Source of the DNA: an uncultured Planctomycetia bacterium
Lineage (GTDB): Bacteria > Omnitrophota > Gorgyraeia > 2-02-FULL-51-18 > JAGOUK01
Length of the DNA stretch: 64,000 nucleotides
Assembly: GCA_964430735.1 (NCBI GenBank)
Contig: CAYSFB010000003.1
Coordinates: 2,039 to 66,038 of the forward strand
Direction: 5' to 3'
Shown here: piece by piece, positions 30,465-45,529 of the stretch
How the letters are laid out: each line of letters opens with the position of its first letter
Numbering within the stretch: the first letter of the stretch is position 1
The notes under the pieces: generated by a model
Databases searched by the model: none
Seen by the model: only the letters and a program-made list of their open reading frames with translations
What the model was told of the DNA's origin: nothing
Program-made: the position numbers and the translations under genes

Positions 30465-30506
30465 ATTAGTATCAGGCTTTTAAGGCGTGATTAATTTTAC
30501 TCACAA

Positions 30507-31292: not shown

Positions 31293-31313
31293 AGGTTTTT
31301 TTAAAAAATATTC

Positions 31314-32774
31314 ATGCGTGGTTATGACGATTTAAAAAGCTGGGTGGCGGCGATGGAGCGGGCGGGGGAACTTGTGCGTGTGAAGGTCGAGGTCGACCCG
31401 ATCCTCGAAATCGCCGAAATCGCTGACCGGGAGTCCAAGAAGCCCAATGGCGGCAAGGCGCTTCTCTTTGAGAATGTGAAGGGCTCGAAGCTGCCGGTCC
31501 TCATCAACGCTTACGGGTCGTACGCGCGGACGGCGTTGGCGATGGGGCTTAAGGATTTTTCGGAGGTCGGGACGATGGTCGGCCGGCTCCTCAATGAGGA
31601 AGTGCTGCAGCAGGGCTGGGTCGAGAAGTTCAAGATGGCCGGTGAGCTCGCGAAGGTCGCGATGGTGTTTCCCAAAGTCGTCGGGTCGGGGCCGTGTCAG
31701 GAGATCGTGCTCACGGGCGATCAGGTTGACCTGGGGCTGCTTCCGATCATTCAGTGCTGGCCGAAGGACGCCAACCGATTCATTACATTTCCGTCGGTGA
31801 TCACGAAGGATCCGGAGACGGGCAAGCGCAATGTGGGCATGTACCGGATGCAGGTTTTTGACAAGAAAACGACCGGGATGCACTGGCAGACGCAAAAAGA
31901 CAGCGCGATCCATTCGGCCAAGAGTCGGATGCGGTCCAAGCGGCTTGAGGTCGCGGTTGTGATCGGGGCGGATCCGTCGGTGACATTCGCCGGCATCGTG
32001 CCGCTGCCGTTCGGCGTGGACGAATTTATGCTGGCGGGCTTCCTGCGCGGGAAGCGGCTGGACCTTGTGAAGTGCAAGACGATCGACCTCGAAGTGCCGG
32101 CGAACGCCGAGATCGTGCTCGAGGGGTTCGTTGATCCGGACGACTTGCGCGAAGAGGGGCCGTTTGGCGACCACACCGGCGTTTACACACCGGTCGAAAT
32201 GTTTCCTGCGTTCCACATCACGGCGATCACGATGCGGCGCGAACCCGTTTACATCACGACAATTGTGGGCAAACCCCCGATGGAGGACCTCTACATGGGC
32301 AAGGCAGTGGAACAGATCTTTTTGCCGGTGCTGAAGAAGCAGATCCCGGAGCTCGTGGACATGAACTTCTTCCAGGAAGGCACATTCAACAACGCGGTGA
32401 TCGTTAGTATCGACAAGCAGTACCCGTTCCAGGCGCGCAAGGTCGCGCACGCGATCTGGGGGCTCGGGCAGCTGAGTTACATGAAGGTCGTGATCATCGT
32501 CGACAAAACGGTGAACGTGCACGACGTGTCGGCGGTGGCGCTGGCCGTTTTCAATAATATTGATCCCAAGCGTGACTGCTTCTTCGTTGAGGGGCCGGTC
32601 GATACTTTGAATCACGCCGCGCCCGTGCGGGACTTCGGTTCCAAGATGGGCATCGACGCGACCGCCAAGTGGAAGGAAGAGGGTTACACGCGCGTCTGGC
32701 CCGACGAGATCGAAATGGACGAGGCCACCAAGGCCAAGGTCACGGCCCGCGCGGCCGAATACGGCATTCAGTAG
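31314..32774 (+). CDS. UbiD-family (prenylated-FMN dependent) decarboxylase, MqnL-like
   Basis: 486-aa UbiD-family architecture, adjacent to UbiA-like and UbiX-like genes. Confidence 0.8.
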   Translation: MRGYDDLKSWVAAMERAGELVRVKVEVDPILEIAEIADRESKKPNGGKALLFENVKGSKLPVLINAYGSYARTALAMGLKDFSEVGTMVGRLLNEEVLQQGWVEKFKMAGELAKVAMVFPKVVGSGPCQEIVLTGDQVDLGLLPIIQCWPKDANRFITFPSVITKDPETGKRNVGMYRMQVFDKKTTGMHWQTQKDSAIHSAKSRMRSKRLEVAVVIGADPSVTFAGIVPLPFGVDEFMLAGFLRGKRLDLVKCKTIDLEVPANAEIVLEGFVDPDDLREEGPFGDHTGVYTPVEMFPAFHITAITMRREPVYITTIVGKPPMEDLYMGKAVEQIFLPVLKKQIPELVDMNFFQEGTFNNAVIVSIDKQYPFQARKVAHAIWGLGQLSYMKVVIIVDKTVNVHDVSAVALAVFNNIDPKRDCFFVEGPVDTLNHAAPVRDFGSKMGIDATAKWKEEGYTRVWPDEIEMDEATKAKVTARAAEYGIQ

Positions 32775-32804
32775 CGCATTCCTCAAGAAAGATCCCGAGA
32801 CCCC

Positions 32805-33677
32805 ATGAGACCCTTTTTTGAAAAAAATCGCGTATTTCTGGAGATGATCAAGTTTGAGCATACGGTGTTTGCGCTGCCGTTTGCTTATCTGGGGTATGTG
32901 TTTGGGGCGGGCGGGGAGTTGGATTTGCGGGAGCTTCTGCTGATCACGATTATTATGGTCGCGGCGCGGACGGCGGGGATGTGTCTCAATCGGATTATTG
33001 ATATTCGGATCGATGCGAAGAATCCGCGGACGCAGCGGCGGGCGTTGGTGACGGGGGAGCTTAGTAAGAATTTTGCGATCGGGGCGTGTGCGGTGAGCTT
33101 CGTCGTGTTTATCGCGGCGGTGTTTCAGCTGCCGAAGATCTGTGTCGAACTGCTTCCGGTGGCGGTTGCGCTTCTGGTGGCTTACCACTTCATGAAGCGG
33201 TACACGATCCTGTGCCACTTCGGCGCGGGACTGGTGCTGGCTTGCGCGCCGATCGGCGGGTGGCTGGCGGCAACGGGGGTGATGGAGCCGGGGGCGATCG
33301 CGCTGGGGTTGGGTGTCATGTGCTGGGTGGCGGGGTTCGACATCTTCTACAGTCTGCAGGACGCGGACTTTGACCGGTCGGCGCGGCTCTACTCGATCCC
33401 GGCGCGGTACGGGGAGGAAACGGCCCTCAAAGCGGCTGTTTGGGCCCATGTGGGAGTTCTGATTTTATTCTCGGCGGTTGGTATAATGTTGCGGTCCAAC
33501 GGGGTGTATTGGGCGGCTTTGGGGCTTGCGGCGGCCATTCTCGGGATCGAGCACTTTTTGGTCCGGCAGGACCGCGCCAAGTATGTGAATACGGCTTTTT
33601 TTACGCTCAATGGGGTTCTCAGCATCGTTTTTTGCGGCATCGCGGCCTTCAGCATGCCGATCAAGTTCGCGCAGTAG
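32805..33677 (+). CDS. UbiA-family polyprenyltransferase (MqnP-like)
   Basis: Multi-TM protein with the NRIIDIRID aspartate-rich motif. Confidence 0.8.
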   Translation: MRPFFEKNRVFLEMIKFEHTVFALPFAYLGYVFGAGGELDLRELLLITIIMVAARTAGMCLNRIIDIRIDAKNPRTQRRALVTGELSKNFAIGACAVSFVVFIAAVFQLPKICVELLPVAVALLVAYHFMKRYTILCHFGAGLVLACAPIGGWLAATGVMEPGAIALGLGVMCWVAGFDIFYSLQDADFDRSARLYSIPARYGEETALKAAVWAHVGVLILFSAVGIMLRSNGVYWAALGLAAAILGIEHFLVRQDRAKYVNTAFFTLNGVLSIVFCGIAAFSMPIKFAQ

Positions 33678-33699
33678 CGGCAACCGAACGGTTTTTTTC

Positions 33700-34311
33700 A
33701 TGAAGCACATTATTTTTGCCGTGACGGGCGGGTCGGGGGCGCCGATCGCCCAGAGGACGCTTGAGCTTTTGCTGGCGGCGGAGGATGTGCGGGTCACGAT
33801 GCTGATGAGCGATTACGCGCGCGACGTCTGGCGCGCCGAGAACGGGATCGACCTCGGTAAGACTCAAGGCGACCTCGCGGCGGGCCTCGCCAAACACTTT
33901 ACGCTGAACAGCCGGTTCGAGCTCATGGAAATTCGGAACATGGCCGCGCGCGTGTCGTCCGGTTCCGTGCAGAACGAAGGCATGATTATCGCGCCGTGCA
34001 GCATGTCGACGCTGGGCACGATCGCCAATGGGATCACGATGAACCTCATCCACCGCGCGGCGAACGTGATGCTCAAGGAAAAGCGGCAGCTCATTCTGGT
34101 CCCGCGCGAGAGCCCGTACAGCCCCATCCATCTCAAGAACATGCTGGAGCTGGCGCAGTGCGGCGCGCATATCGTCCCGGCGACGACGGCGTTTTACCAC
34201 CAGCCGAAGACGGTGGGGGACATGGTCGACTTCGTCGTGATGAAAGTTCTCGACCTGGCGGGCGTCGCCCACGGGCTCGACAAACGCTGGAAAGGCATCG
34301 AAACCGACTAA
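33700..34311 (+). CDS. ubiX: Flavin prenyltransferase UbiX
   Basis: MKHIIFAVTGGSGAPIA...; ~200 aa flavoprotein fold. Confidence 0.85.
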   Translation: MKHIIFAVTGGSGAPIAQRTLELLLAAEDVRVTMLMSDYARDVWRAENGIDLGKTQGDLAAGLAKHFTLNSRFELMEIRNMAARVSSGSVQNEGMIIAPCSMSTLGTIANGITMNLIHRAANVMLKEKRQLILVPRESPYSPIHLKNMLELAQCGAHIVPATTAFYHQPKTVGDMVDFVVMKVLDLAGVAHGLDKRWKGIETD

Positions 34312-34332
34312 CATGCAGGACTTCAGCTAAAC

Positions 34333-35427
34333 ATGCAGGTCATCCAGGAATTCACCGACATCTGGGCCAAGGTCCAGGCAGGCACCCCGCTCACGCGCGA
34401 AGACGGCTACCGCCTCATCAAATCCACGAACCTGGCCGAGCTCGGCTACATGGCCGATTACGTCCGCCGGAAAAAGCACGGCAAGAAGACCTACTTCACC
34501 CATTCGATCAACGTGAATTACACGAACCTGTGCGTGCTGACGTGCAAGTTCTGCGCTTTTTCGCGGACGAAGAAGGATCCGGATCATTACACGTGGACCG
34601 TGGACGAGATCACCAACAAGGTCCGCAACGCCGCCAAGAAGGGCGTCTGGGAAGTCCACATCGTCGGCGGGCTTCACCCCGACAAGCGCATGGATTACTA
34701 CGAAGACATGTGCCGCAGCATCAAGGCGGCCTGCCCGGGCGTCCTCATCCAGGGCTTCACGGCGGTCGAGCTCGACCTGTTCGCGCGGCAGAACAAGATC
34801 GACGTGCGCGAAGTCCTCACGCGCCTCAAGGCGGCGGGCCTCGGCGGCGTGCCGGGCGGCGGGGCGGAGATTTTTGCGGAAAAAGTGCGCAAGGAGATCT
34901 GCGGGACCAAGATCACCGGCAAACGCTGGCTCGAAGTTCACGAAGTCGCGCATGAAGTCGGCTTCCGGACCAACGCGACCATGCTCTACGGCCACATCGA
35001 AAGCCCCGAGGACCGCGTGGACCACATGATGGACCTGCGCGACCTGCAGGACAAAACGGGCGGCTTCCTGGCCTTCGTGCCGCTGGCCTACCTCCCGGAA
35101 AACAACGAGCTTCAATGCCCGCGCACCACGGGGATCACCGACCTGCAGGTGCTGACCGTGTCGCGCCTGCTCCTCCACAACTTCGACCACATCCGCCAGC
35201 TCTGGAACTACGTCGACAAAAAGCTCATCCAGGCCGCCCTCTACTTCGGTGTGGACGACCTCGGCGGAACCAACTACGACGAGACGATCGCGCGCGAAGC
35301 CGGCTGTCATGAGTCGGGCTTTACCCACGGCGAGCTGATGGACCTCATCCGCCGCACGGGGCACGAGCCGGTCGAATCCAATTCCATCTATTCCGAACTG
35401 CGCAAGGACGAGCTCGTCGCAGCTTAA
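34333..35427 (+). CDS. Radical SAM menaquinone biosynthesis enzyme, MqnE/MqnC family
   Basis: CxxxCxxC (CKFCAF) and MqnC/MqnE-type conservation; the two paralogs cannot be assigned from sequence alone. Confidence 0.75.
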   Translation: MQVIQEFTDIWAKVQAGTPLTREDGYRLIKSTNLAELGYMADYVRRKKHGKKTYFTHSINVNYTNLCVLTCKFCAFSRTKKDPDHYTWTVDEITNKVRNAAKKGVWEVHIVGGLHPDKRMDYYEDMCRSIKAACPGVLIQGFTAVELDLFARQNKIDVREVLTRLKAAGLGGVPGGGAEIFAEKVRKEICGTKITGKRWLEVHEVAHEVGFRTNATMLYGHIESPEDRVDHMMDLRDLQDKTGGFLAFVPLAYLPENNELQCPRTTGITDLQVLTVSRLLLHNFDHIRQLWNYVDKKLIQAALYFGVDDLGGTNYDETIAREAGCHESGFTHGELMDLIRRTGHEPVESNSIYSELRKDELVAA

Positions 35428-35430
35428 CCG

Positions 35431-36318
35431 ATGACCCCGACCCCCAAGACCCTGCGGCTCGGCTCGATCGCGTACATCAATTCGCTGCCGGTCGACCTGG
35501 GGATCCTGAAGGGCGCGGTCGATCCGGGTCCGGATGTCACCATCATCCCGGACGTTCCGAGCGGCCTTAATGCGCACGTGATCGCCGGCCGGTTGGACAT
35601 CACTCCCGTTTCTGCGCTTCATTACGCCGACAACGCCGACAGCCTGGTCCTTTTGCCGGACCTTTCCGTGAGCTCCGAGAGCGGCGTGCAGAGCGTGCTG
35701 TTGTTTTCGAAGCGGCCGATCCTTGAGATCGGGCGCGCCCCGATCCGCATGACCGATCAGGGGAGGACGACGCCGGCTCTTTTGAGGATTTTGCTCGAGA
35801 AGCGCTACGGGCTCAAGCCCCTGTACCTACTCGGGCCCTCGACCTCGGACCTGTCGACGGTCCTGGACGACGCGATCCTGCTCATCGGCGACGACGCGCT
35901 GCGCGCGGCGGATTCGCCCGAGGCCGCCGGATGGCAGGTGACCGACCTCGCTCAGGAGTGGCAGGCCTGGACCGGCCGCCCGTTCGTGTTCGCGGTCTGG
36001 ACCGCGCGCCGCGACTTCTGGCAGAAGCATCCCGACGACGTGCTGCGCGTACTCGCGGCGCTGCTTAAAAGCCGCCGGTGGGCCGCGGAGCATGAGTGGG
36101 AGCTGATCGACGAAGCCGAGCTTCGCAGCGGCCTCAAGCCCGACCGGCTGCGGCGCTACTACAAGGAGCTGCGGTTCGACATGGACGTGACGCTCGTGAA
36201 GGGGATGATGCAATATTTTGATATGGCGGCGCAGTTCGGGATCCTCCGCAAGGCCCCGAAGCTGGAATGGCTGCCGGCAGGACTGGCAACGCAACAAGGA
36301 GCGACGACGCATGGTTAA
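35431..36318 (+). CDS. MqnA/MqnD-family protein (chorismate dehydratase or 1,4-dihydroxy-6-naphthoate synthase)
   Basis: LRLGSIAYINSLPV N-terminus typical of the family. Confidence 0.7.
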   Translation: MTPTPKTLRLGSIAYINSLPVDLGILKGAVDPGPDVTIIPDVPSGLNAHVIAGRLDITPVSALHYADNADSLVLLPDLSVSSESGVQSVLLFSKRPILEIGRAPIRMTDQGRTTPALLRILLEKRYGLKPLYLLGPSTSDLSTVLDDAILLIGDDALRAADSPEAAGWQVTDLAQEWQAWTGRPFVFAVWTARRDFWQKHPDDVLRVLAALLKSRRWAAEHEWELIDEAELRSGLKPDRLRRYYKELRFDMDVTLVKGMMQYFDMAAQFGILRKAPKLEWLPAGLATQQGATTHG

Positions 36319-37420
36319 CGCACGGCAAGAAGTGGAACGACTGCTCGACAAGGCCGAATCCGGCCAGCGGATCACGACGGCGGAAGGGGAGCTCCTCTTC
36401 ACCGAAGCCAATCTTTTTGAGCTCGGCGCCGTCGCCGAGCGCCTGAAGCACCGGCGCGTTCCGGGTTCCGACAAGCAGGCGACTTTCGTCGTCGACCGGA
36501 ACATTAACTACACGAATTACTGCAACTCGCTCTGCAAGTTCTGCGCCTTCTACCGCATCCCCGGCGACACCAAAGAGGGCTATGTCCGCGGCATCGACGA
36601 AATCTTCCAGAAGATCGACGAACTCGTCGCCATCGGCGGCACCCAGGTCCTCATGCAGGGCGGCCACAACCCCGACCTCGGAATCGAGTACTACGAGGAC
36701 CTGATCTCGAAGGTGCATGCGAAGTTTCCGCAGGTGATCATCCACTCGCTGTCGGCCTCGGAGATCTGCCACATCGCCAAGACCTCCAACATCAGCCGCA
36801 AGGAAGCGCTCGAGCGCGTCCGCGCAGCCGGCATGGAATCGCTCCCCGGCGGGGGTGCCGAGATTCTCGTCGACCGCGTCCGCAACCGCATCAGCCCCTT
36901 GAAGACGAAGACCGCCGACTGGGTCGACGTCCACCGCACGGCCCACCAGCTCGGCATGAAGGGCACCGCCACGATGGTCTACGGCTTCGACGAAACGATC
37001 GCCGAGCGCATGGAGCACTTCGAAGTGGTCCGCAAGCTCCAGGACGAAACGGGCGGCTTCCGCGCCTTCATCCCCTGGAGCTTCATCTCCGAATCCACGG
37101 AAATGGACCTCCCGCACCGCACCGGTGACGAATACCTCCGTATGCTCGCTATCAGCCGCATCATGCTCGATAACATCCAGCATCTCCAGGCAGGTTTTGT
37201 GACCGAAGGGGAAAAGCTCGCCCAAGCCGCCCTGAGCTTCGGCGCGGACGACTTCGGCGGGATCCTCATGGAGGAGAACGTGGTGACCGCGACGGGATTG
37301 GAGTTTAAGGGATTCCCGAAAGAAGAGGCGGTTAGGCAGATTCGGGAGGCGGGTAAGATACCTATACAACGTAATACTAGATACGAGTTAGTGCAAGCAT
37401 TTCTCGATTTACTCAATTAA
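36311..37420 (+). CDS. Radical SAM menaquinone biosynthesis enzyme, MqnC/MqnE family (3' end AT-rich and chimeric)
   Basis: CNSLCKFCAF cluster; paralog of the gene at 34333. Its last ~22 codons (37355-37420) have island-like low GC. Confidence 0.75.
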   Translation: MVNARQEVERLLDKAESGQRITTAEGELLFTEANLFELGAVAERLKHRRVPGSDKQATFVVDRNINYTNYCNSLCKFCAFYRIPGDTKEGYVRGIDEIFQKIDELVAIGGTQVLMQGGHNPDLGIEYYEDLISKVHAKFPQVIIHSLSASEICHIAKTSNISRKEALERVRAAGMESLPGGGAEILVDRVRNRISPLKTKTADWVDVHRTAHQLGMKGTATMVYGFDETIAERMEHFEVVRKLQDETGGFRAFIPWSFISESTEMDLPHRTGDEYLRMLAISRIMLDNIQHLQAGFVTEGEKLAQAALSFGADDFGGILMEENVVTATGLEFKGFPKEEAVRQIREAGKIPIQRNTRYELVQAFLDLLN

Positions 37421-37422
37421 TT

Positions 37423-39420
37423 ATGAAAATGTTGAATGATGATGTTCGTCCGGGTTTTCATCGAGCGTTCAACTCGGTTGATTATACGGAGAGCGAACAA
37501 CTAATCTTACGTAAATTATCCCAAGAATGGTACATAACGAAATCAGGCACTCCGATTAACTTGGGAGCCTCCAGTTACAGATATTTCTTTATGAAGCCCA
37601 CGGCGATTTTTTCTGAGATGTTCAATATTGATAGAGAAATCGTCTGCATTTTCAGCCCATACACTCATTTTGAACCAAGAACATTAGACGCCTTTGATGA
37701 AGCGGTAGCGAAATCCCCTCAATTACGGTTAGAAAGCGTATGCCGCGTTTTAATAAGTGCAACTGAGAGCATTGAACAAAAAATTGAAGACTTGATCAAA
37801 TCCGATCCTGAGCAGCCTGTTGTAATTCCTTTCTCATACAAAGAATTGTTGGATACTAAAGACCCTTACTTTATCCGCAATCGATTTCGCAGACACTTTT
37901 ACTCAAGAGATTTGTTTGCTTTTTCTTCACCCCTCAAGAAAGATTTGTACTTTTTTGGGCGCAACCCACTCGTCCATGATCTTGTTAACAGACACAGATC
38001 TGGCGAGCATGCCGGATTGTTCGGTCTCCGTAAGAGTGGTAAAACTTCTATCATCTACGCAATCGAGCGATTGATGAGCGCAAATGATGAAGTGTATGTG
38101 TCGATCGATTGCGAGAGCCCGTCCATTCACAGGCTTCGCTGGTATGAGTTGCTGCATAAAATCGTTGCTAAGTATCACGCTACTAGAGATTCAAAAATAA
38201 GCTTGCGGCCTATGCAAGAATATACAGAGAAAATGGCTGCCGAGTTATTTGAATCCGAGATATTAGCTATTTACGGGTCAAAAAAGCGCAAAAGATCTCT
38301 ATTTGTTTTTGATGAAATAGAGCACATATCACCCGACACAGGCTCTTCAGAACATTGGAAATCAAATGAAGATTTTGTGCTTTTTTGGCAATCCATGCGA
38401 GCATTTCATCAGCGCCATAGTGAAGTTATGACTTATATGCTCGTTGGCACCAATCCGTCAGCAGTTGAACGGGCGAAGTTATGTGGAGGGGATAATCCGT
38501 TATTTGGTTCCATTCCTGTCCAGTATGTGCCGAGTTTTACCTATGAGCAAGTGCGCGAAATGGTTAGAAAACTTGGTAGGTATATGGGGATAAAGTTTGA
38601 TGAGATGGTATTTGCCAAAATTGCCGAAGAATGGGGTGGTCACCCTTTTTTGATCAGGCAATTTTGTAGCAAGATTAATAGTGCATGCACAGGGGATCGG
38701 CCGATAAACGTTGATAGGGCCATGTATGAATCGGTAAAGAGATCATTCGCTGAATCAGCCGATGATTATCTAGAGTCTATCGTCCAAGTCTTACACGATT
38801 GGTATCGGGATGAATATGACATGTTGATGTTTTTGGCGATGAATGATCACGAGACATTCAAGAAATTCGCCACAGACCACAATCTCTACACGCGCCATTT
38901 GTTGGGATATGGACTTATACAGCAAAGTGAACACGGCTTCACTTTTATAATTAGCTCGCTTCGAGAGCATCTCGCCAAAAAGCATAAATTCAAAAAATTA
39001 AACATGACTACTCAAGAAATGGTCGATGAATGCTCTGCTCGTCGAAATCAGCTTGAAAAGTCCTTAAGATTGCTTACGAAAAGACTAATGAAGTTGGAGT
39101 ATGGAGATAAAGCGGTCGAGGTGCTGTTGGGAGCAATCCCAGGCGAAAGAAGAGAAAAAATGCGTGGTATGACTATAGAGCAATTAACGAACTCAGATTC
39201 TTGTCCTCTATATTTTTCAGATTTGACCGCCCTACTTAAGAGGGAGTGGAAAATATTTGGAAAAATCTTCTCATTCGATTGTGAAAGAATGTCAGTCATG
39301 ATGGCTGATATAAATCGATATGCTAGACCTGACGCGCATGCAAAGAACATAAAAAAGGAAGATTTTGATCTGGTGCGTAATTATTTTGAGCGGATTGAAA
39401 AAGCCATATCCGATTGGTAG
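37423..39420 (+). CDS. Island-encoded P-loop AAA+/STAND-type NTPase with a C-terminal R-x6-H (HEPN-like) motif; candidate defense protein
   Basis: Low-GC codon usage. FFGRNPLVHDLVNRHRSGEHAGLFGLRKSGKTS (Walker A, nt ~38023-38049), LFVFDEIEH (Walker B, ~38299-38325), C-terminal RYARPDAHAK (~39316-39345). Resembles the Orc1/archaeal-ATPase (PF01637-like) signature. Confidence 0.6.
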   Translation: MKMLNDDVRPGFHRAFNSVDYTESEQLILRKLSQEWYITKSGTPINLGASSYRYFFMKPTAIFSEMFNIDREIVCIFSPYTHFEPRTLDAFDEAVAKSPQLRLESVCRVLISATESIEQKIEDLIKSDPEQPVVIPFSYKELLDTKDPYFIRNRFRRHFYSRDLFAFSSPLKKDLYFFGRNPLVHDLVNRHRSGEHAGLFGLRKSGKTSIIYAIERLMSANDEVYVSIDCESPSIHRLRWYELLHKIVAKYHATRDSKISLRPMQEYTEKMAAELFESEILAIYGSKKRKRSLFVFDEIEHISPDTGSSEHWKSNEDFVLFWQSMRAFHQRHSEVMTYMLVGTNPSAVERAKLCGGDNPLFGSIPVQYVPSFTYEQVREMVRKLGRYMGIKFDEMVFAKIAEEWGGHPFLIRQFCSKINSACTGDRPINVDRAMYESVKRSFAESADDYLESIVQVLHDWYRDEYDMLMFLAMNDHETFKKFATDHNLYTRHLLGYGLIQQSEHGFTFIISSLREHLAKKHKFKKLNMTTQEMVDECSARRNQLEKSLRLLTKRLMKLEYGDKAVEVLLGAIPGERREKMRGMTIEQLTNSDSCPLYFSDLTALLKREWKIFGKIFSFDCERMSVMMADINRYARPDAHAKNIKKEDFDLVRNYFERIEKAISDW

Positions 39421-39435
39421 TTTTTTGAAAGAAAA

Positions 39436-40101
39436 GTGAAAGAATTAATATTTGGACCTGGAGGTTTGATTTTATTGGGCGCTTTGCTGAGCGCGAGCGG
39501 CGCGCTTTGGGCTGGTCATCGGCAGCAAATATTCGATAGTGATATTCACTTAAAAAATCAGCAGCTTTTGTCAAAAAGTGACGAGATAGCACGAATGCAA
39601 GAGACCATTCGGCTCTCTGTAACGGGATCGGGTTACTGTTTCATTGCCCTCACAAATCTCAATCGTACCACCAATGAACAGAATGTAATGCTTATGAATC
39701 CCGGCGGGTACCCTCTTTATGATGTCGGAATTCGCGTAGTTGATTTGAAGAAGTGGGAAGATTTGGCAAAGGGCGGATCTATTAATTACGAGTCAATGAG
39801 AGCTGCCGAAACAATTTATCAATTTGGTGAATTAGGTCCGGAAAGAGTTTTGGATATAGGCAAATGGGATTTGGGGGATTCTGATGCGAGAGATTTTAAT
39901 ATTTTTATATCAAGTCGGAGCGGTTTTATATCGGAGCGTCTCCGGCTCAGAAGGGTCGAAGGCGAATGGGTTGCGGCCACTCAAGTCGTTAAGGGTAATA
40001 CGACAATTAAAGATAACGTGATTCAATTGGAGGGCGAAATTTTACACGAGACTATTCATGACAAATTCCCTCGAAATGCATCTGGCGTGGTTGATTGGTA
40101 A
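39436..40101 (+). CDS. Island-encoded hypothetical protein with an N-terminal transmembrane anchor
   Basis: GTG start; LIFGPGGLILLGALLSASGALWAG helix, then a ~190-aa soluble domain with no recognisable motif; same low GC as the ATPase gene. Confidence 0.5.
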   Translation: MKELIFGPGGLILLGALLSASGALWAGHRQQIFDSDIHLKNQQLLSKSDEIARMQETIRLSVTGSGYCFIALTNLNRTTNEQNVMLMNPGGYPLYDVGIRVVDLKKWEDLAKGGSINYESMRAAETIYQFGELGPERVLDIGKWDLGDSDARDFNIFISSRSGFISERLRLRRVEGEWVAATQVVKGNTTIKDNVIQLEGEILHETIHDKFPRNASGVVDW

Positions 40102-40107
40102 GCATAT

Positions 40108-40989
40108 ATGGATAGCAGGATTTTGCAAGAATGTACTGATTTGGCTTTTAAAGGAAAGATTACTTTTCCCGAAGTCGTGCGGCGTATGGCCGATACTGGC
40201 GTGGAACGGTACTGCGCGGACCTGGTCACTTTTCAAAAAATCATTTATGCAGCTGATGGGCAGAATCACACCGTTGCGCTACCGCTGACGAACCCACCCG
40301 CAATCGCCCAGGAATTCTCGGCCGCCGGCGTGATCGAAGCCATCCGGACCATCCAAAAGGGTGGGATCGACTACCCGGAATTCCTGAGGCGTATCATGAA
40401 ATCAGGAACCGTCTTTTATGACGTGTTCATCCGCGGGGGGAAGACCATTTATGTGGGGCGGAACGGGGATTTTCACGTGGAAACTTTTCCAATATCCAAG
40501 GAGGGCAATATCATGGCAAACGCAATTCCTAATGGGTATCGTTCCGTGACTCCGAGCATGACGTTCAAAGACACTCAGAAGGCGCTCGACTTCTACAAAA
40601 AAGCGTTCGGCGCGAAAGTGATGGACCTGTTTCCGAGCCCGGCCGGCAAGGGCATCATGCACGCGACGATGCAGATTGGCGACTCGATCGTCATGATGGG
40701 CGACGAGATGCCGACCTGCAAGAGCGCGGAGACGATGGGCGGTTCGCCCATGGGGCTTTTCATCTACGTGCCGAATGTGGACGAGGTGTTCCAGCAGGCG
40801 GTGGCGGCGGGAGCCAAGGTGACGATGCCGGTGGCGGAGATGTTCTGGGGCGACCGCTGCGGGAACGTCAAAGACCCGTTCGGCTACGACTGGATGATCG
40901 CCACGCACACCAAGGACCTTTCCAAGGAAGAGATCCGCAAGGGTGGCGAGGCGTTTTTCGCTCAGATGGCCAACCAGAGCAAGTCGTAA
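40108..40989 (+). CDS. DUF1398 (YbcV-like) fused in frame to a VOC/glyoxalase (PhnB-like) domain
   Basis: N-terminal 135 aa match DUF1398 (...PEFLRRIMKSGTVFYDVFIRGG...). An internal AAGGAGG Shine-Dalgarno plus ATG at 40513 begins a complete PhnB-like VOC domain with no intervening stop. Confidence 0.6.
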   Translation: MDSRILQECTDLAFKGKITFPEVVRRMADTGVERYCADLVTFQKIIYAADGQNHTVALPLTNPPAIAQEFSAAGVIEAIRTIQKGGIDYPEFLRRIMKSGTVFYDVFIRGGKTIYVGRNGDFHVETFPISKEGNIMANAIPNGYRSVTPSMTFKDTQKALDFYKKAFGAKVMDLFPSPAGKGIMHATMQIGDSIVMMGDEMPTCKSAETMGGSPMGLFIYVPNVDEVFQQAVAAGAKVTMPVAEMFWGDRCGNVKDPFGYDWMIATHTKDLSKEEIRKGGEAFFAQMANQSKS

Positions 40990-41024
40990 GTCAATAAGAC
41001 CCGCGCCAGGCGAATCATAAGCTC

Positions 41025-41258
41025 ATGAAAAGATCGACGAACCCGCTGGATGGCATGACTCTGGAGAAGATTCTGGAGCGGCTGGTTCAGGAGTATGGCT
41101 GGGCCGAGTTGGGGCGGAAGGTCAAGATCCGCTGCTTCAATGCGGACCCGAGCATCAAGTCGAGCCTGACCTTTTTGCGTAAGACGCCCTGGGCGCGGAC
41201 GAAAGTCGAACAGCTTTTTATTGCGCTTCCAACACGGTACATCAAGAAGCCCAGTTGA
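41025..41258 (+). CDS. DUF2132 (VF530-like) small protein
   Basis: [28 protein letters not shown]...[18 protein letters not shown]. Confidence 0.65.
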
Positions 41259-41269
41259 GGGAGGGGATT

Positions 41270-41560
41270 ATGAGGCAAAAACTGAACGCTTTATTCATCG
41301 CCCTGATGCACGTCGCCTTTTACCCCGCGGCGGCGATTGCTGCAGCATTGCCCTGCTCCGAGGAGTACGGCAGGATGAATGAGGCGTCCCTTCTGATGGC
41401 GTCGCCGGACCTCAAGCCCGAAGCCATTGAAGAAGCGCAGAGGATTCTCGATGAGTGGCAGCCCAAGTATGATGCGTGCGTGAGTGATTACGGCGAGCGC
41501 AACGGCGCTGACGCACGGGCTGATTTGGAAGTCCGGCTCGCCGCGGGAGGGCAGTCCTGA
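41270..41560 (+). CDS. Hypothetical secreted protein
   Basis: GGAGGGG RBS before ATG 41270; signal-like ALFIALMHVAFYPAAAIAAA. Confidence 0.4.
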   Translation: MRQKLNALFIALMHVAFYPAAAIAAALPCSEEYGRMNEASLLMASPDLKPEAIEEAQRILDEWQPKYDACVSDYGERNGADARADLEVRLAAGGQS

Positions 41561-41862
41561 TGCGGCTCACCGAAGGAAAGGGCTGGACGCTCAGCTCCGT
41601 CGACAGTTCACATCCTCAGCCCAAGCCGGCCCAGAAGGCCAATCCGAATTCGCCCAAGCCCCATATCCGCATCGAGAAACGCAACGGCAAGGCCGTCACG
41701 TGTATCGCCAATCTTCACACCTACGGTTCCGACCGTCTGGAGAAAATGGCCAAAGAGTGGAAGGCGCAATTCGGCACCGGCGGCACCGTCAAAGACGGTG
41801 TGATCGAGATCCAGGGCGACCGTGTCGCCGCCATCAAAGAATGGTTCGCCAAACAACGTTAG
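41560..41862 (+). CDS. yciH: Translation initiation factor SUI1/YciH family
   Basis: ...GKAVTCIANL...KEWKAQFGTGGTVKDGVIEIQGDRV... Confidence 0.8.
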   Translation: MRLTEGKGWTLSSVDSSHPQPKPAQKANPNSPKPHIRIEKRNGKAVTCIANLHTYGSDRLEKMAKEWKAQFGTGGTVKDGVIEIQGDRVAAIKEWFAKQR

Positions 41863-41871
41863 GAGGGAAGC

Positions 41872-42069
41872 ATGGCCGGTAAAGCTAGCAGCAATACCTC
41901 GAGTCTTAAAAAGATCAGCGCGAAGAAGGTCAAGGTCTTCAAGGTCCGCAACCGCCGCTGCTATGCGGCGATCTGCATGGACAACCTCTGCGAAGGGACC
42001 ACGCCTCAGCAGGCCGTCCGGCGCCTCTACCATCCGCTGCGGCGGATGGGGTTCGAGCTCGTCCTGTAA
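41872..42069 (+). CDS. Hypothetical small basic Cys-containing protein
   Basis: 65 aa with RRCYAAICMDNLCEG; GGAGGG RBS upstream. Confidence 0.35.
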   Translation: MAGKASSNTSSLKKISAKKVKVFKVRNRRCYAAICMDNLCEGTTPQQAVRRLYHPLRRMGFELVL

Positions 42070-42096
42070 CCCCCCCAGGCAGGCGAAGAATCCAGT

Positions 42097-42125
42097 TTGA
42101 CAACGCCGCGTCCTTCCGCTATCAT
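42097..42125 (+). promoter_or_regulatory. Sigma70-like promoter for rplM-rpsI
   Basis: TTGACA, 17 nt, TATCAT ~40 nt upstream of the rplM ATG. Confidence 0.55.
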
Positions 42126-42164
42126 ATGCGACTCTTAATCTCGTAAGGAATATAAGGATTTATC

Positions 42165-42626
42165 ATGAGCACAAGCACCGCTATCGGAAAAGACCGTTTG
42201 ACCGCCAAGGATTCTTGGTACATCGTCGACGGCAAAGACCAGGTTCTCGGACGTCTCGCGTCGTTTTTGGCGATGGCGCTCATGGGCAAAAACAAGCCCA
42301 CGTACACCCGTCACATCCCGAGCCGCACCCACATCATCGTCATCAACGCCGACAAGATCCGCGTCACCGGCAACAAGATGGACGACAAGATCTACAAGTA
42401 CTACTCCGGTTTTCCGAGCGGTCTGCGCGAAGCCAAGCTCAAGCAGGTGATCGCGAAGGATTCGACCCGGCCGATCAAAGAAGCCGTTTGGGGAATGCTC
42501 CCGAAGACGGCACTGGGTCATGACATGCGGACGAAGCTTTTCGTCTACAAAGACGCGACGCATCCGCACATCGCTCAGGCCCCTCAACCCCTGGCCGCAC
42601 CGGCCTCCGCAAAGGCGAAAAAGTAA
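42165..42626 (+). CDS. rplM: 50S ribosomal protein L13
   Basis: WYIVDGKDQVLGRLASFLAMALMGKNKPTYT... Confidence 0.95.
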   Translation: MSTSTAIGKDRLTAKDSWYIVDGKDQVLGRLASFLAMALMGKNKPTYTRHIPSRTHIIVINADKIRVTGNKMDDKIYKYYSGFPSGLREAKLKQVIAKDSTRPIKEAVWGMLPKTALGHDMRTKLFVYKDATHPHIAQAPQPLAAPASAKAKK

Positions 42627-43055
42627 ATGACAACCGAAGTCGAAAAGAAGCCGAAAAAAGCATCCGCCACCATCCTTGCGACCGCCACCGGCCGCCGGAA
42701 GACCTCTTCCGCGCGCGTGCGCATCGCCGAAGGCTCGGGCCAGATCACGATCAACGGCGAAAAGTCCACCGACTATCTTCATCGTCCGACGCTCCAGATG
42801 CACATCATGGAGCCGATGGAACTCCTCCAGTGCGCCACCAAGTATGACGTGTTCGTCAACGTCATGGGCGGCGGCAAGGCCGGACAGGCCGGAGCGATCC
42901 GTCACGGCATTTCGCGCTGCCTCGCGCAGCTCGATGAAAAGTTCCAGGTCGAGCTCCGAAAGGGACCGTTCATGACCCGCGACTCCCGTATGAAAGAACG
43001 CAAAAAATACGGTCAGCGCGGAGCACGTCGCCGGTTCCAGTTCTCGAAGCGTTAA
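42627..43055 (+). CDS. rpsI: 30S ribosomal protein S9
   Basis: ...[19 protein letters not shown]...KKYGQRGARRRFQFSKR. Confidence 0.95.
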   Translation: MTTEVEKKPKKASATILATATGRRKTSSARVRIAEGSGQITINGEKSTDYLHRPTLQMHIMEPMELLQCATKYDVFVNVMGGGKAGQAGAIRHGISRCLAQLDEKFQVELRKGPFMTRDSRMKERKKYGQRGARRRFQFSKR

Positions 43056-43076
43056 TCTCTCGACGATATCACTCAA

Positions 43077-43134
43077 AACGCACCCCGGCGCCTGTGCAGA
43101 CAGGGCAAGCCGGGGTGCGTTTTTTATTTTTCTC
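43077..43134 (+). terminator. Rho-independent terminator after rpsI
   Basis: AAACGCACCCCGGC...GCCGGGGTGCGTTTTTTATTTTT. Confidence 0.8.
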
Positions 43135-43181
43135 AACCTGTTGGAAATAAACGACTTACGTGTTTTTTACAAGCATTTTTA

Positions 43182-43209
43182 TTGACTCTGCAGAGCAGGG
43201 TGCTAAAAT
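43182..43209 (+). promoter_or_regulatory. Sigma70-like promoter for the arg operon
   Basis: TTGACT, 16 nt, TAAAAT upstream of argC. Confidence 0.5.
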
Positions 43210-43253
43210 AACGCGCAAGTTTTTTCCATCAACGACAAGAAAGCAAGAGTTAG

Positions 43254-44267
43254 GTGAAAAAGATCAGGGCCGGCATCGCCGGCGTCACCGGCTACAGCGG
43301 TGAAGAGCTTCTCAAAATTCTCGTCGACCATCCGCATGTCGAAGTGGCGTACGCCGCCGCGCACGCGGACCGCCAGCGCAAGATCCAGGAACTTTTTCCG
43401 TATCTCCAGGGAAAAATAGATTTGGACTGCAGGGTCATGAACGCCGATGACGCGGCGCGCGCGTGCGACGTGGTGTTTCTGGCGACGCCGCACGGTGCGT
43501 CGATGCAGGCCGCGCCCGCGATCCTCAAGGCCGGCAAACGCGTGGTCGACATCAGCGCGGATTACCGTCTCAAGAACGCCGCGTGGTATCCCGAGTATTA
43601 TCAGTTCGAGCACACCGACCCTGCGAACCTTCCGGGCGCCGTGTACGGGCTGTCCGAATACCGCCGCAAGGAAGTCGCGGGCGCGAAGCTCGTCGCGAAT
43701 CCCGGCTGTTATCCGACCGCCGTGCAGCTGGCGCTGTTGCCGCTCGTCGAAGCCGGCGTCGCGTGGACCGCGCCGTGCGTGATCGACGCCAAGAGCGGTG
43801 TGACCGGCGCCGGACGCAAGGCGTCGCAGTCGCTGCTTTTTTCCGAAATCGCGGAGAGCTTCAAGGCCTACAAGGTGCTCGGACATCAGCACGAGGCCGA
43901 GATCCGTCAGGGGCTGGGCACGGTGAACTTCGCCTTCATCCCGCACCTGCTGCCGATCAACCGCGGGATTCTCGCGACGATTTACGTGACGCCGTCCAAG
44001 CCGGTCGGCGCCGAGCAGCTGCGCTCGATTTTTGTTTCCAAGTACGCCGCCGAGCCCTTCGTGAAGGTGCTGCCGGCAGGAGAGTTTCCGGAGCTGCGGA
44101 ATGTGAACGGCACGAATCAGTGCCATATCGGCGTCGGCGTCCGCAAGGACACGGGCGTCCTGGTCATCATCTCGGCCATCGACAATCTCGTGAAAGGCGC
44201 GAGCGGACAGGCCGTCCAGAACATGAATCTCATGTTCGGGTTTGACGAAAAAGAGGGTCTAAAGTAA
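43254..44267 (+). CDS. argC: N-acetyl-gamma-glutamyl-phosphate reductase
   Basis: IAGVTGYSGEELLKIL...; GTG start. Confidence 0.9.
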   Translation: MKKIRAGIAGVTGYSGEELLKILVDHPHVEVAYAAAHADRQRKIQELFPYLQGKIDLDCRVMNADDAARACDVVFLATPHGASMQAAPAILKAGKRVVDISADYRLKNAAWYPEYYQFEHTDPANLPGAVYGLSEYRRKEVAGAKLVANPGCYPTAVQLALLPLVEAGVAWTAPCVIDAKSGVTGAGRKASQSLLFSEIAESFKAYKVLGHQHEAEIRQGLGTVNFAFIPHLLPINRGILATIYVTPSKPVGAEQLRSIFVSKYAAEPFVKVLPAGEFPELRNVNGTNQCHIGVGVRKDTGVLVIISAIDNLVKGASGQAVQNMNLMFGFDEKEGLK

Positions 44268-45500
44268 ATGAAAGAAGTGATTCGCGGCGGCATCACGGCG
44301 CCCCAGGGATTCAAGGCCAACGGAATTTTTTGCGGCATCAAGAAGTCCAAGAAGCGCGACCTCATGCTCATCGCATCGGACACTCCGTGCGTGGCCGCGG
44401 GCGTCTTTACGACCAACCAGCTCAAGGCCGCGTGCGTCCAGTTCAACATCAAGCAGCTCAAGAACAACCACGCGCAGGCGATTCTCGCCAACTCGGGCAA
44501 CGCCAACTGCCTCACCGGCCCTGCCGGCAAGCGGCACAACGCGCAAATGGCCGAGGCGGCCGCCAAGGCGCTCGGCATTGCGCCGTCTTTGGTCCTCACG
44601 GCGTCGACCGGCGTCATCGGCCAGCGGCTCCCGATCGACCGGGTGCTCGAAGGCATGCAGGAGCTCGCCGAGGGCGTGCGTACCGGGCAGCAGGCGTCTG
44701 AGGACGCGGCCGAGGCGATTCTGACGACCGACCTCGTGACCAAGGAAAAAGCTTACAAGATCCGCATCGGCGGACGCAGCGTCCGGATCGCGGCCATCTC
44801 CAAGGGCTCGGGGATGATGCATCCGTACATGACCGTGAACGGGCAGCGGCACGCGACGATGCTGTGCTTCGTGACCACCGACGCGGTGATCTCGGAAGCG
44901 GCGCTGAAGTCGGCCCTGAACCGCGCGGTGGGGAAGAGCTTCAACATGATCTCCGTCGACGGCGACCAGTCGACGAACGACATGGTGCTCGTGCTGGCCA
45001 ACGGCCGCGCGCGCAACCAGATGATCAAGGAGAAGACGCCCGAGTTCAACAAGTTTCTCGACGCGCTCGAAGACATCTGCGTCGACATGGCCAAGGCCAT
45101 GATCCGCGACGCCGAAGGCGCGACCAAGTTCGTCGAGATCGCGGTCAAGAATGCGAAGACCGCCGAAGACGCGCGCACGGTCGCGATGTCGATCGGCTGC
45201 TCCAACCTGGTGAAGACCGCGCTGTACGGCTGCGATCCGAACTGGGGCCGCATCGCAGCGAGCATCGGCTATTCCGCCGTGGGCGTCGACCCCCAGAAGC
45301 TTCAGATCAAGATCGGTTCGTTCACCGTCCTCAAGGGCGAGCAGGGCTACCGCGAGAACGAGGCGGCGCTGGCCAGGATTTTTCGCAAGCAGGACATCCG
45401 CATCACGGTGGATCTGGGCATCGGCAAGAAGAGCGCGACCATCTGGACGAGCGACCTGTCGACCCAGTACGTGAAGATCAACTCCGCGTACCGCACGTAA
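44268..45500 (+). CDS. argJ: Bifunctional glutamate N-acetyltransferase / amino-acid acetyltransferase
   Basis: ArgJ-family architecture with the self-cleavage-site region ...ATML. Confidence 0.9.
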   Translation: MKEVIRGGITAPQGFKANGIFCGIKKSKKRDLMLIASDTPCVAAGVFTTNQLKAACVQFNIKQLKNNHAQAILANSGNANCLTGPAGKRHNAQMAEAAAKALGIAPSLVLTASTGVIGQRLPIDRVLEGMQELAEGVRTGQQASEDAAEAILTTDLVTKEKAYKIRIGGRSVRIAAISKGSGMMHPYMTVNGQRHATMLCFVTTDAVISEAALKSALNRAVGKSFNMISVDGDQSTNDMVLVLANGRARNQMIKEKTPEFNKFLDALEDICVDMAKAMIRDAEGATKFVEIAVKNAKTAEDARTVAMSIGCSNLVKTALYGCDPNWGRIAASIGYSAVGVDPQKLQIKIGSFTVLKGEQGYRENEAALARIFRKQDIRITVDLGIGKKSATIWTSDLSTQYVKINSAYRT

Positions 45501-45529
45501 GCCCCATAGAAGGAAGCCGCAAGAGCACC

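Follow-up and report, generated by a model that had tools for sequence, protein, structure and literature searches.

A horizontally acquired NLR-like NTPase with a C-terminal HEPN domain, probably a single-protein abortive-infection sensor

The gene and its low-GC surroundings

The window, that is, the whole stretch of 64,000 nucleotides that was analysed, contains at 37423..39420 (+) a gene with an ATG start whose product of 665 aa comprises a restriction-endonuclease (REase)-like N-terminal domain, a STAND/Orc-like ATPase followed by a winged helix, and a HEPN domain. No long ORF competing with it was found when both strands were looked at, so that the ORF proposed in the initial annotation can be regarded as real. 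The description of the locus as an island also held, because the gene has a GC content of 41.1% and the next ORF one of 43.5%, against 60.8-61.5% in the flanks and about 61% in the genome, and the edges of the low-GC block are sharp. The second ORF of this block (39436..40101, +) codes for a protein of 221 aa with one N-terminal transmembrane (TM) helix, which had neither a Pfam match nor a homologue at the other loci of the family; it is regarded simply as co-acquired cargo and not as a conserved partner. A two-gene system including this downstream TM protein was rejected, since no homologue of it lies beside other members and no neighbour family recurs. An ncRNA partner, as in the type III toxin-antitoxin arrangement of AbiF, was also rejected, because the intergenic spaces measure just 2 nt and 15 nt and the Rfam search of positions 30000-46000 was empty.

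Inside the window the neighbours of the ATPase gene are housekeeping genes, and none of them belongs to a restriction-modification (R-M) system. The ATPase was absent from all 40 of the 40 loci that hold the flanking mqnC-like gene, and in one relative (L015) rplM-rpsI come directly after mqnC. The ATPase gene was acquired horizontally. The edges of the island showed neither a convincing pair of direct or inverted repeats nor an adjoining tRNA gene, the sole tRNA being a tRNA-Pro at 59952.

Domain architecture of the protein

The NTPase core (aa 173-430; 37939..38712, +) consists of a P-loop domain and a helical lid. All the ATPase motif strings reported previously were found, namely YFFGR (aa 176-180; 37948..37962, +), which is the 'hhGR' strand located upstream of the P-loop, the Walker A motif GLRKSGKTS (aa 201-209; 38023..38049, +) and the Walker B motif LFVFDEIE (aa 293-300; 38299..38322, +). 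The catalytic lysine of Walker A had been numbered K206, but residue 206 is a glycine and the lysine is K207. When 35 relatives sharing 26-47% identity were aligned, the Walker residues proved to be invariant, far beyond chance: G201, R203, G206, K207, T208 and S209 in Walker A, and D297 and E298 in Walker B (35/35), E300 being present in 34/35; G179 and R180 of the hhGR strand were likewise found in 35/35. The core also includes GTNP (342-345), N358-P359 and GGHPFLIR (405-412), of which N358-P359, G405-G406 and R412 are invariant and P408 of GGHP (405-408) is conserved at 90% or more. It is followed by a helical and winged-helix region (aa 431-527; 38713..39003, +) that contains two more invariant residues, E464 and the H492 of 'HLxGYGL', and that is predicted in the model to be helical from 432 to 495 and then to form a beta-hairpin with strands 499-502 and 505-508. 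As a speculation, H492 might be a nucleotide-sensing histidine.

The features of STAND NTPases were sought and found both in the alignment, where the hhGR strand, Walker A (GxxxxGK[ST]) and Walker B (hhhhD[DE]) are conserved in the 35 relatives, and in the model, where a helical lid with a GxP-type motif (GGHP) precedes the winged-helix elements, seen as helices and then a beta-hairpin at 476-508. A helical lid with a GxP-type motif and a winged helix are defining features of STAND NTPases, and the hhGR strand is typical both of them and of Orc/Cdc6-type NTPases, its link to STAND having reportedly been described by Leipe et al. in 2004. The Pfam families AAA_14, AAA_22, nSTAND1 and nSTAND6 were matched by 27/27 close relatives, and AAA_16 and AAA_35 by most of them. 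The STAND Pfam scores of the window protein itself all lay under the curated cut-offs; more distant relatives exceeded those of AAA_35 and of PF01637 ATPase_2 (45.2 bits against a cut-off of 33.2), relative P0235 being above the latter. Together, the Pfam matches of the relatives and the invariant motifs supported the earlier assignment to the AAA+/STAND ATPases of the PF01637 type. No significant match came from searches of PDB sequences, whether made with the whole protein or with profiles of the whole family, of the N-domain or of the C-domain; the best one was the PF01637-type archaeal ATPase 2fna, with which the pattern FF.R...GLRR.GK.S is common; NCBIfam gave no match to the window protein.

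The N-terminal domain (aa 1-165; 37423..37917, +) was modelled confidently (pLDDT 92) as an alpha/beta restriction-endonuclease-like, or PD-(D/E)xK-like, fold. The model has the alpha-beta-beta-beta-alpha-beta core of these enzymes, and its fold matches the catalytic domains of FokI, Cap4, Can2, NucS, LlaBIII and HamA. The catalytic D...(D/E)xK expected on strands 2 and 3 is absent, the positions being assigned by secondary-structure order and not by superposition: in the modelled topology S50 is the first residue of strand 2 and the sequence of strand 3 is E72-I-V, so that the Asp and the Lys are both missing. None of the residues of this domain is invariant among the 35 relatives. Several charged ones are well conserved, namely K58 (K or R in 30/35), E72 (E or D in 33/35), R86, R102 and D/E104, and given this conservation a non-canonical catalytic activity of the domain is conceivable. 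Some relatives extend their N-terminal end with CSD (cold-shock) and OST-HTH (LOTUS) domains. Our data agree with the initial suggestion of a sensor role for this region, and the region itself can now be described as a proposed sensor or binding module with an REase-like fold that, according to the model, has no canonical catalytic triad. The literature already states the theme of an REase that is inactive and senses nucleotides beside an NTPase (PMC12839542).

The C-terminus is a HEPN domain (aa 528-665; 39004..39417, +), Swt1/Abi2-like, and is the proposed RNase effector. Its identification had been put forward from the last residues of the protein, and it was upheld by a four-helix up-down HEPN fold in the predicted structure and by the invariance of three residues in the motif NRYARPDAH (aa 631-639; 39313..39339, +): R635, A638 and H639 were found in 35/35 homologues, and N631 in 34/35. 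R635 and H639 are the predicted catalytic pair and sit, in the model, in the loop that follows core helix 3 (620-633). HEPN domains have been described as having a second motif, Ex3[KR], upstream of R...H (PMC3710099), and it is present in the window protein as E545-x3-R549 within RRNQLEKSLR (aa 540-549; 39040..39069, +), with E545 conserved in 35/35 relatives, R549 being R or K in 35/35, and R541 in 33/35. Both this motif and the position of R...H agree with the published description (PMC3710099).

The proposal of an R-x6-H catalytic motif stood only in part. The string lies where it was reported, but the register starting at R632 is fortuitous and the conserved pair R635/H639 is R-x3-H. Residue 632 is an R in just 4/35 relatives, with K in 12 and S in 5. 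The window protein has 7 occurrences of R-x(4-6)-H against 4.8 +/- 2.0 in shuffles, and the chance of finding one in any 40-aa tail is 21%. Given the poor conservation of R632 and a pattern that chance alone would produce, R632-x6-H639 was rejected as the catalytic motif. Among 212 motif-bearing sequences of the family the spacing was R-x3-H in 199 and R-x4-H in 13. The R-x3-H spacer is one residue below the published R-x4-6-H range, and the R-H spacing of HEPN domains is described as variable (PMC3710099).

The sole Pfam family that recurred in the C-terminal domain was PF18731 (HEPN_Swt1), which was matched by 13/35 relatives with a best E of 3.6e-7 and an estimated best score of about 31 bits. 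The window protein reached 18.8 bits at full length and 22.6 bits (E 1.3e-4) with the domain alone, the latter alignment spanning profile positions 5-115 of 115. Both scores are under the gathering cut-off of 27.5 bits and the protein is not a curated member of PF18731; the domain was therefore filed as Swt1/Abi2-like at the superfamily level.

Distribution of the family and exchange of its C-terminal module

We found 1929 homologues at E<=1e-3 and 1744 cluster representatives, the family amounting to about 1,700 clusters at 50% identity. Competibacter, Thermoanaerobaculia, Thermodesulfobacteriota, Zetaproteobacteria and Shewanella all have full-length relatives with about 55% identity, and at this level of identity the family crosses at least 6 phyla. 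Database names of the members are just 'hypothetical' or 'AAA-like domain-containing protein', and a literature search found no published function for any of them. The family is large, unnamed and widely transferred. Copies were present in 40 plasmid records, 36 of them of conjugative or mobilizable plasmids, and these include clinical Klebsiella IncF plasmids. The Klebsiella homologue WP_094716518.1 on pF13_1 has 35% identity to the window protein and retains every motif. A copy was also carried by 22 IMG/VR contigs, and prophage-like contigs are among the carriers; no homologue was found in the INPHARED phage genomes.

All three modules were recognised in 98 of the 150 best representatives, and alternative tails in 21. 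The N-domain and the NTPase are constant across the family, and the C-terminal module is replaced by TIR, by Schlafen/AlbA_2 or by a second R-x4-H domain. TIR_2 tails were found in P0140, P0160, P0173 and P0198 (E 1e-12 to 1e-17), SLFN_AlbA_2 tails in P0193 and P0226 (E 1e-13), and a cluster of 11 tails has an invariant R-x4-H. Because relatives keep the N-domain and the ATPase but change the tail, the C-terminus behaves as a swappable effector. With these natural exchanges of HEPN, TIR and Schlafen, the family lends itself directly to the question of how effectors that differ in their chemistry can be activated by a single switch. In PADLOC-DB 2.0 (2023) no model, including the Avs/NLR ones, covers the backbone of the protein, whose only matches were PDC-S01 over the 56 aa of the P-loop (E 6.7e-4) and LmuB (E 0.027); in the relatives only the TIR tails gave matches, to the models of ThsB and other TIR effectors.

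No conserved partner gene was found across 86 loci, and the commonest neighbour family, which resembles an integrase, occurred in just 5 of them. The surroundings are variable, mobile or rich in defence genes, the defence context being judged from 10 annotated neighbourhoods. R-M, toxin-antitoxin, integrase and IS genes are frequent beside the relatives, and the individual neighbours include type I R-M, Mrr, KAP NTPase, Fic, HicAB, YoeB/Phd and PIN genes, an integrase, a resolvase and IS elements. Type I R-M genes adjoin the family in only one of these ten distinct contexts (L009-L011), where some 200 nt separate the homologue from the hsdR-hsdS-hsdM cluster upstream of it; in L006-L008 it comes directly after an Mrr_cat gene.

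Proposed function and comparison with known systems

The protein is most likely a standalone, mobile NLR-like (STAND/Orc-type) NTPase that serves as a single-protein abortive-infection sensor. Its architecture and context suggest an ATP-gated abortive infection, and from them we infer the trigger, the RNA target and the ATP dependence. The constant N-terminal side, with its REase-like domain and in some members the nucleic-acid-binding cold-shock and LOTUS domains, would detect an infection cue, probably a nucleic acid or a nucleotide-type ligand. This detection would free the NTPase from an inactive state and allow its ATP-dependent oligomerisation, which would bring the HEPN domains together into an active RNase; the resulting cleavage of RNA would stop translation and abort the infection. 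If it is a defence system, this would be a compact NLR-like sensor encoded by one gene, in which a small domain of nuclease fold, and not a large repeat array, is the receptor.

The Avs and other bacterial NLR-like STAND proteins (Avs1-21, bNACHT; PMC13581612) likewise unite in one polypeptide a sensor, an NTPase switch of the STAND type and an effector that kills the cell, have modular effectors (nuclease, TIR and others), and are found in defence islands, plasmids and prophages, spreading by horizontal gene transfer. In contrast with the characterised Avs/bNACHT proteins, the domain order here is reversed, with the presumed sensor at the N-terminus and the swappable effector at the C-terminus, and the whole protein has just 665 aa. 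The sensor would be the REase-fold domain of about 165 aa, as opposed to the TPR, WD40 or other sensor of at least 400 aa in Avs; the large C-terminal repeat sensor of Avs and defence STANDs is absent, and its place is taken by the 138-aa HEPN domain. In a 2026 survey that distinguished 589 STAND clades, only sensor domains of at least 400 aa were clustered (PMC13581612), and compact proteins of this kind would fall outside that part of it for this reason. It is possible, though we propose it only tentatively, that the protein is the founding case of a widespread, as yet unnamed, compact 'reverse-polarity' NLR-like class with a triad-less REase-fold receptor, a STAND switch and interchangeable C-terminal effectors. 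The receptor of such a class could be directed at phage nucleic acid or a nucleotide signal, with cold-shock or LOTUS domains sometimes assisting. At the C-terminus the effector would be a HEPN of one of two kinds, a TIR or a Schlafen domain. Should this reading prove correct, bacterial pattern recognition would gain both a new kind of sensor and a new architecture, and the copy on Klebsiella IncF plasmids would be a tractable one.

The N-terminal domain could instead be catalytically active as a non-canonical nuclease, either as the true effector or as an additional one, leaving the HEPN domain mainly to RNA binding or sensing. The nuclease domains matched by its fold and its conserved charged residues are compatible with this reading, and characterised Avs proteins bear their nuclease effectors at the N-terminus. 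We nevertheless consider it unlikely, because the N-domain has no invariant residue whereas every catalytic residue of the HEPN and NTPase domains is found in 35/35 relatives, the modelled canonical positions appear to lack the Asp and the Lys, and the exchange for classic effectors such as TIR and Schlafen affects the C-terminal module while the N-domain stays constant.

It is similarly improbable that the protein has no antiviral role and either serves mobile elements in addiction or competition or is an ATPase of plasmids and islands that takes part in regulation or DNA transactions, in the manner of Orc/Cdc6, TnsC or clamp loaders. Such a role would suit the copies located near rep and par genes and an integrase on conjugative IncF plasmids, and the frequency of IS elements or integrases as neighbours. 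The conserved HEPN RNase site and its TIR and Schlafen alternatives, however, fit replication or transposition poorly, an antitoxin-like partner gene is not conserved, and there is no fixed link to any one element type.

A guard of the PrrC kind, held inactive by an adjoining R-M enzyme and releasing its RNase when a phage inhibits that enzyme, is also unlikely: the homologues near hsdR-hsdS-hsdM and directly after Mrr_cat, as well as the domain pair common to PrrC, speak for it, but no R-M or other partner recurs (top neighbour family in 5/86 loci), the window copy has no R-M neighbour, the NTPase of PrrC is ABC-type whereas the one described here is STAND/Orc-like, and the exchange with TIR and Schlafen effectors suits a self-contained sensor better. 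The resemblance to the anticodon nucleases PrrC and RloC lies in an N-terminal NTPase joined to an RNase of the HEPN type at the C-terminus, in which the R and the H are essential (PMC3710099); these enzymes act by abortive infection, and some homologues of our protein also adjoin type I R-M genes. PrrC has no REase-fold N-domain, and the family shows no consistent R-M link, no neighbour recurring in 86 loci, and the embedding in a type Ic R-M locus that is a trait of PrrC was not seen for it, type I R-M genes being present in one of ten contexts.

The preferred reading of a self-contained abortive-infection sensor can also be set against three other groups of proteins. The PF01637 'archaeal ATPase' proteins SSO1545 (PDB 2fna) and PAB2304 (2qen) have in common with it the signature FF.R...GLRR.GK(T/S)S...hhhhDE, but they have about 350 aa and consist of an ATPase and a winged helix only, without REase-fold or HEPN modules. 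The DUF499/BrxC-like ATPases (Ava_2192 and the 'BR' systems; PMC3710099, PMC12839542) also have a defence context and are likewise fusions of a P-loop ATPase with a HEPN of the Swt1 clade; in them the HEPN is N-terminal, the ATPase is of the DUF499 type and the gene belongs to a multigene methyltransferase-helicase system, whereas the gene studied here stands alone. Finally, the HEPN domains of the Swt1/Abi2 clade, including AbiF/AbiD (PDB 8vz6), the C-terminal domain of yeast Swt1 (4pqz) and PF18731, have the same helical fold, R...H motif after helix 3 and Ex3[KR] motif. The RNA-binding or sensing role that the nuclease alternative would leave to the HEPN domain corresponds to the one proposed for the inactive HEPN of eukaryotic Swt1. 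The HEPN domain of the window protein is fused to an NTPase, while AbiF stands alone (bound to ncRNA in 8vz6) and the HEPN of Swt1 follows a PIN domain. Its family has mostly 3 residues in the R-H spacer, against 4-6 in the Swt1/Abi2 clade, and such a variant, conserved as R-x3-H, would widen what is accepted as the active-site motif of HEPN domains.

C-terminal HEPN domain and ATPase core

The ORF encoding the ATPase (37423..39420, + strand, ATG start, 665 codons) was found where the initial annotation had placed it, and the peptides quoted there were located at residues 176-180 (YFFGR), 201-209 (GLRKSGKTS), 293-300 (LFVFDEIE) and 631-639 (NRYARPDAH). The opposite strand contained stops throughout.

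Residue conservation was determined by counts over 35 relatives having 26-47% identity to the window protein. R635, A638 and H639 were invariant, and N631 as well as a D or E at position 637 were each present in 34 of the 35, whereas position 632 was an R in only four. Of the three residues named there for checking, R635 and H639 were thus retained and R632 was not, so that the R-x6-H register (R632...H639) was not meaningful; the conserved spacing was R-x3-H in 199 of 212 motif-bearing members and R-x4-H in the other 13. R-x(4-6)-H occurred seven times in the protein versus 4.8 +/- 2.0 times in shuffles, and the chance of finding it in a random 40-residue tail was 21%. The motif match alone therefore carries no weight, as the annotation itself had conceded. 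A second invariant element, E545-x3-R549, was localised in the first long helix of the C-terminal domain and corresponded to Ex3[KR], the second HEPN signature according to Anantharaman et al. (PMC3710099).

The only Pfam family recurring in the C-terminal region was PF18731 (Swt1-like HEPN), which was matched by 12 of 27 close and 13 of 35 distant relatives (best E 3.6e-7). The full-length window protein scored 18.8 bits, and its isolated C-terminal domain (aa 528-665) 22.6 bits (E 1.3e-4, profile positions 5-115 of 115), both below the 27.5-bit cut-off. The two refuting outcomes named in the annotation, an unconserved motif and a non-HEPN fold at the C-terminus, were both checked and neither was found, and the HEPN assignment was kept.

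The Walker lysine was K207 and not K206 as previously given, because residue 206 is a glycine. Invariant residues of the NTPase were G179-R180, those of Walker A, R216, D297-E298, W312, E349, N358-P359, G389, G405-G406 (within GGHP), R412, E464 and H492; it is a matter of speculation that the last one, in the winged helix, might correspond to the histidine by which other STANDs contact the nucleotide. The window protein was below the Pfam cut-off for AAA_22, AAA_14, nSTAND1, AAA_16, nSTAND6 and AAA_35, and matches to these same models recurred in all or nearly all relatives. Some relatives exceeded the cut-offs: P0235 for PF01637 ATPase_2 (45.2 bits), P0227 for AAA_35 and P0218 for AAA_16. The best PDB sequence match was SSO1545 (2fna), a PF01637-type protein; it was not significant (E 0.23), and the alignment ran through the common FF.R...GLRR.GK.S...DE pattern. 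The invariant motifs and the match of P0235 supported the PF01637-type, STAND-like ATPase originally proposed.

N-terminal domain and exchange of effectors

Profiles of residues 1-172 gave no match in Pfam or PDB sequences. The N-domain, modelled alone from 35 diverse sequences, gave a very confident prediction (pLDDT 92.1, pTM 0.87), whose structure matches included Cap4 (6.4), AF1548 (6.4) and LlaBIII (6.2), followed by Can2, NucS, the RPB5 N-domain and N.BspD6I (all 5.9) and, at lower scores, by EcoT38I, HindIII, Sen15, HamA, Upx, McrC and SduA. Foldseek returned nothing significant for this domain, RPB5 N-domains being the best (E 0.03). When positions were assigned by strand order, the canonical Asp fell at about S50 and the (D/E)xK at E72-I-V, E72 being the only canonical catalytic residue retained (E or D in 33 of 35). 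No N-domain residue was invariant among the 35 relatives, and R86, R102, K/R58 and D/E104 were well conserved. The N-domain is read here as a restriction-endonuclease (REase) fold lacking the canonical catalytic motif and probably serving binding; it may hold an unusual active site.

Cold-shock and OST-HTH/LOTUS domains are nucleic-acid-binding modules. Relatives carried the former (P0133 and P0222, preceding the REase-like N-domain), the latter (P0154) or both (P0156 and P0182) as N-terminal additions, and P0184 had a long N-terminal extension. The cold-shock and LOTUS extensions are hints of RNA or single-stranded DNA sensing.

Of the 150 best representatives, 98 comprised all three modules, and 21 ended in another C-terminal tail, at least 100 residues long. 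Throughout, both N-domain and ATPase were kept. The exchanged tails included TIR domains (TIR_2 at E 1e-12 to 1e-17, with ThsB and other TIR effector models matched in PADLOC) and Schlafen/AlbA_2 domains (E 1e-13). Eleven members (P0218, P0227, P0235, P0247, P0249, P0257, P0259, P0262, P0264, P0267 and P0270) shared a C-terminal region of ~180 aa without Pfam match and with an invariant canonical R-x4-H (RIxxYR[HN]xxxHxxL; YR[HN]xxxH); this region is probably another HEPN-type effector, not described before, that is carried by the same N-domain and ATPase chassis. Since classic cell-killing enzymes are exchanged at the C-terminus while the N-terminal side is constant, the C-terminus is the effector, and the N-terminal side is presumably the sensing part.

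Proposed mode of action and comparison with known systems

STAND proteins are nucleotide-controlled switches that oligomerise upon ligand binding, HEPN RNases generally form their site only when two domains come together, and assembly is also the activating step for TIR and Schlafen effectors. On the basis of this behaviour, the best explanation, which we favour with some reserve, is that an infection cue would bind at the N-terminal side and trigger ATP-dependent assembly, which would activate the predicted HEPN RNase, arrest translation and lead to abortive infection. What the analysis shows are the three modules, the invariance of NTPase and HEPN catalytic residues, the exchange of effectors and a mobile context in which the gene stands alone; the domain-level finding is solid, and the proposed mechanism is plausible. 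A nucleic-acid or nucleotide-type cue is suggested by the REase fold, by the conserved arginines and by the added cold-shock and LOTUS domains. According to a recent comparative study, REase domains that are inactive and occur together with NTPases often serve to sense nucleotides (PMC12839542). A phage protein is an equally possible trigger.

The window protein resembled Avs/NLR-type sensors in its predicted mode of action; however, it lacks a large C-terminal sensor and shows reversed polarity, the order of a constant N-terminal side and a C-terminal effector being opposite to that of characterised Avs and bNACHT proteins. It shared with PrrC the combination of an NTPase and a (here predicted) HEPN RNase, but the family has no consistent R-M linkage. 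A 2013 paper (PMC3710099) lists fusions of Swt1-clade HEPN domains with ATPases and with STAND NTPases; in those the HEPN is N-terminal and the ATPases are others, whereas it is C-terminal here. PADLOC gave no match for the window protein, its matches among relatives coming from TIR tails. The literature search, with the clade tables of a 2026 STAND survey outside the comparison, found no paper on the architecture or the family, and the N-domain is presumably a previously undescribed small sensor domain.

Insertion site and spread of the gene

The ATPase gene had 41.1% GC compared with 60.8-61.5% in the rest of the window, in agreement with its description as an island. The low-GC block began 2 nt past the stop codon of a radical-SAM gene resembling mqnC/cofH and stopped just upstream of a DUF1398-glyoxalase ORF. 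The final ~80 nt of the mqnC-like gene (37340-37420) already had low GC (about 42-56%), so that composition did not sharply define the left insertion edge; the C-terminus of the mqnC-like protein was still alignable with relatives to about residue 364 of 369. A second low-GC ORF (39436-40101, + strand, 43.5% GC), probably co-acquired with the ATPase gene, encoded 221 aa with one N-terminal TM helix (residues 6-24), and showed no Pfam match and no homologue beside any other family member. The fusion ORF (40108-40989, + strand) had a partial DUF1398 match (residues 5-52) and a glyoxalase/bleomycin-resistance domain (153-264); GC climbed along it from about 48% to about 62%, and on an identical contig (L001) the gene caller gave it a later start (267 aa).

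The window belongs to a Candidatus Omnitrophota genome, whose mqnC-like protein showed 89% identity to that of isolate WC_9 and 64-69% to those of other Omnitrophota/Planctomycetia-labelled MAGs. The ATPase gene was absent from 40 of 40 related mqn loci. In an Omnitrophota relative (L015, 6001-8038) rplM-rpsI followed mqnC within about 90 nt; in the window, 4.7 kb (37420-42165) separated them, containing the ATPase, the TM ORF, the DUF1398-glyoxalase fusion, VF530, a 101-aa ORF and SUI1. The site at which the mqn (futalosine-pathway) operon meets rplM-rpsI was variable, and these absences together with the tight L015 junction identified the gene as a strain-specific acquisition at this spot.

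At E<=1e-3, a search of a 5.8-billion-protein collection gave 1929 proteins. The top 120 were all full length (mostly 660-690 aa, 52-58% identity), and those with a named source came from Competibacter, Thermoanaerobaculia, Thermodesulfobacteriota and Zetaproteobacteria. A close relative from Shewanella algae was annotated as 'hypothetical protein'. An exhaustive HMMER search of 50%-identity representatives gave 1744 matches (413 below 1e-30), with full-length relatives down to about 27% identity.

Across 86 loci whose flanks could be used, no fixed partner gene was found; the top neighbour family within 3 kb, integrase-like, occurred in five, and the TM ORF of the window had no counterpart in other family loci. 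Homologues were found next to a type I R-M cluster immediately upstream plus HicB, YoeB/Phd and PIN genes; Mrr_cat and Fic genes; flanking copies of IS3 to the left and right; HicAB; a KAP NTPase and a resolvase; or an integrase, an HTH gene, ISL3 and HicA. Further copies were surrounded by ordinary genes. Forty plasmid records bore a homologue (Ralstonia 18, Klebsiella 16, the others from Nostoc, Sinorhizobium and Deinococcus), 36 of them typed as conjugative or mobilizable. A relative was present on 22 IMG/VR viral contigs, and no homologue was found in INPHARED phage genomes. Qualitatively, the pattern matches a mobile defence-type gene that stands alone.

WP_094716518.1 (667 aa, 'AAA-like domain-containing protein'; L055 6974-8977), encoded by the conjugative IncFIB/IncFII plasmid pF13_1 of K. 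pneumoniae (NZ_CP026163.1), retained all the motifs. Its gene was situated close to rep and par genes, with an integrase gene on one side and, on the other, another AAA ATPase gene followed by vapBC; this homologue offers a practical experimental model. In a single locus (L013), and in no other, an HTH_3 (XRE-type) regulator gene (5607-5993) ended 8 nt upstream of the ATPase gene and could provide local transcriptional control.
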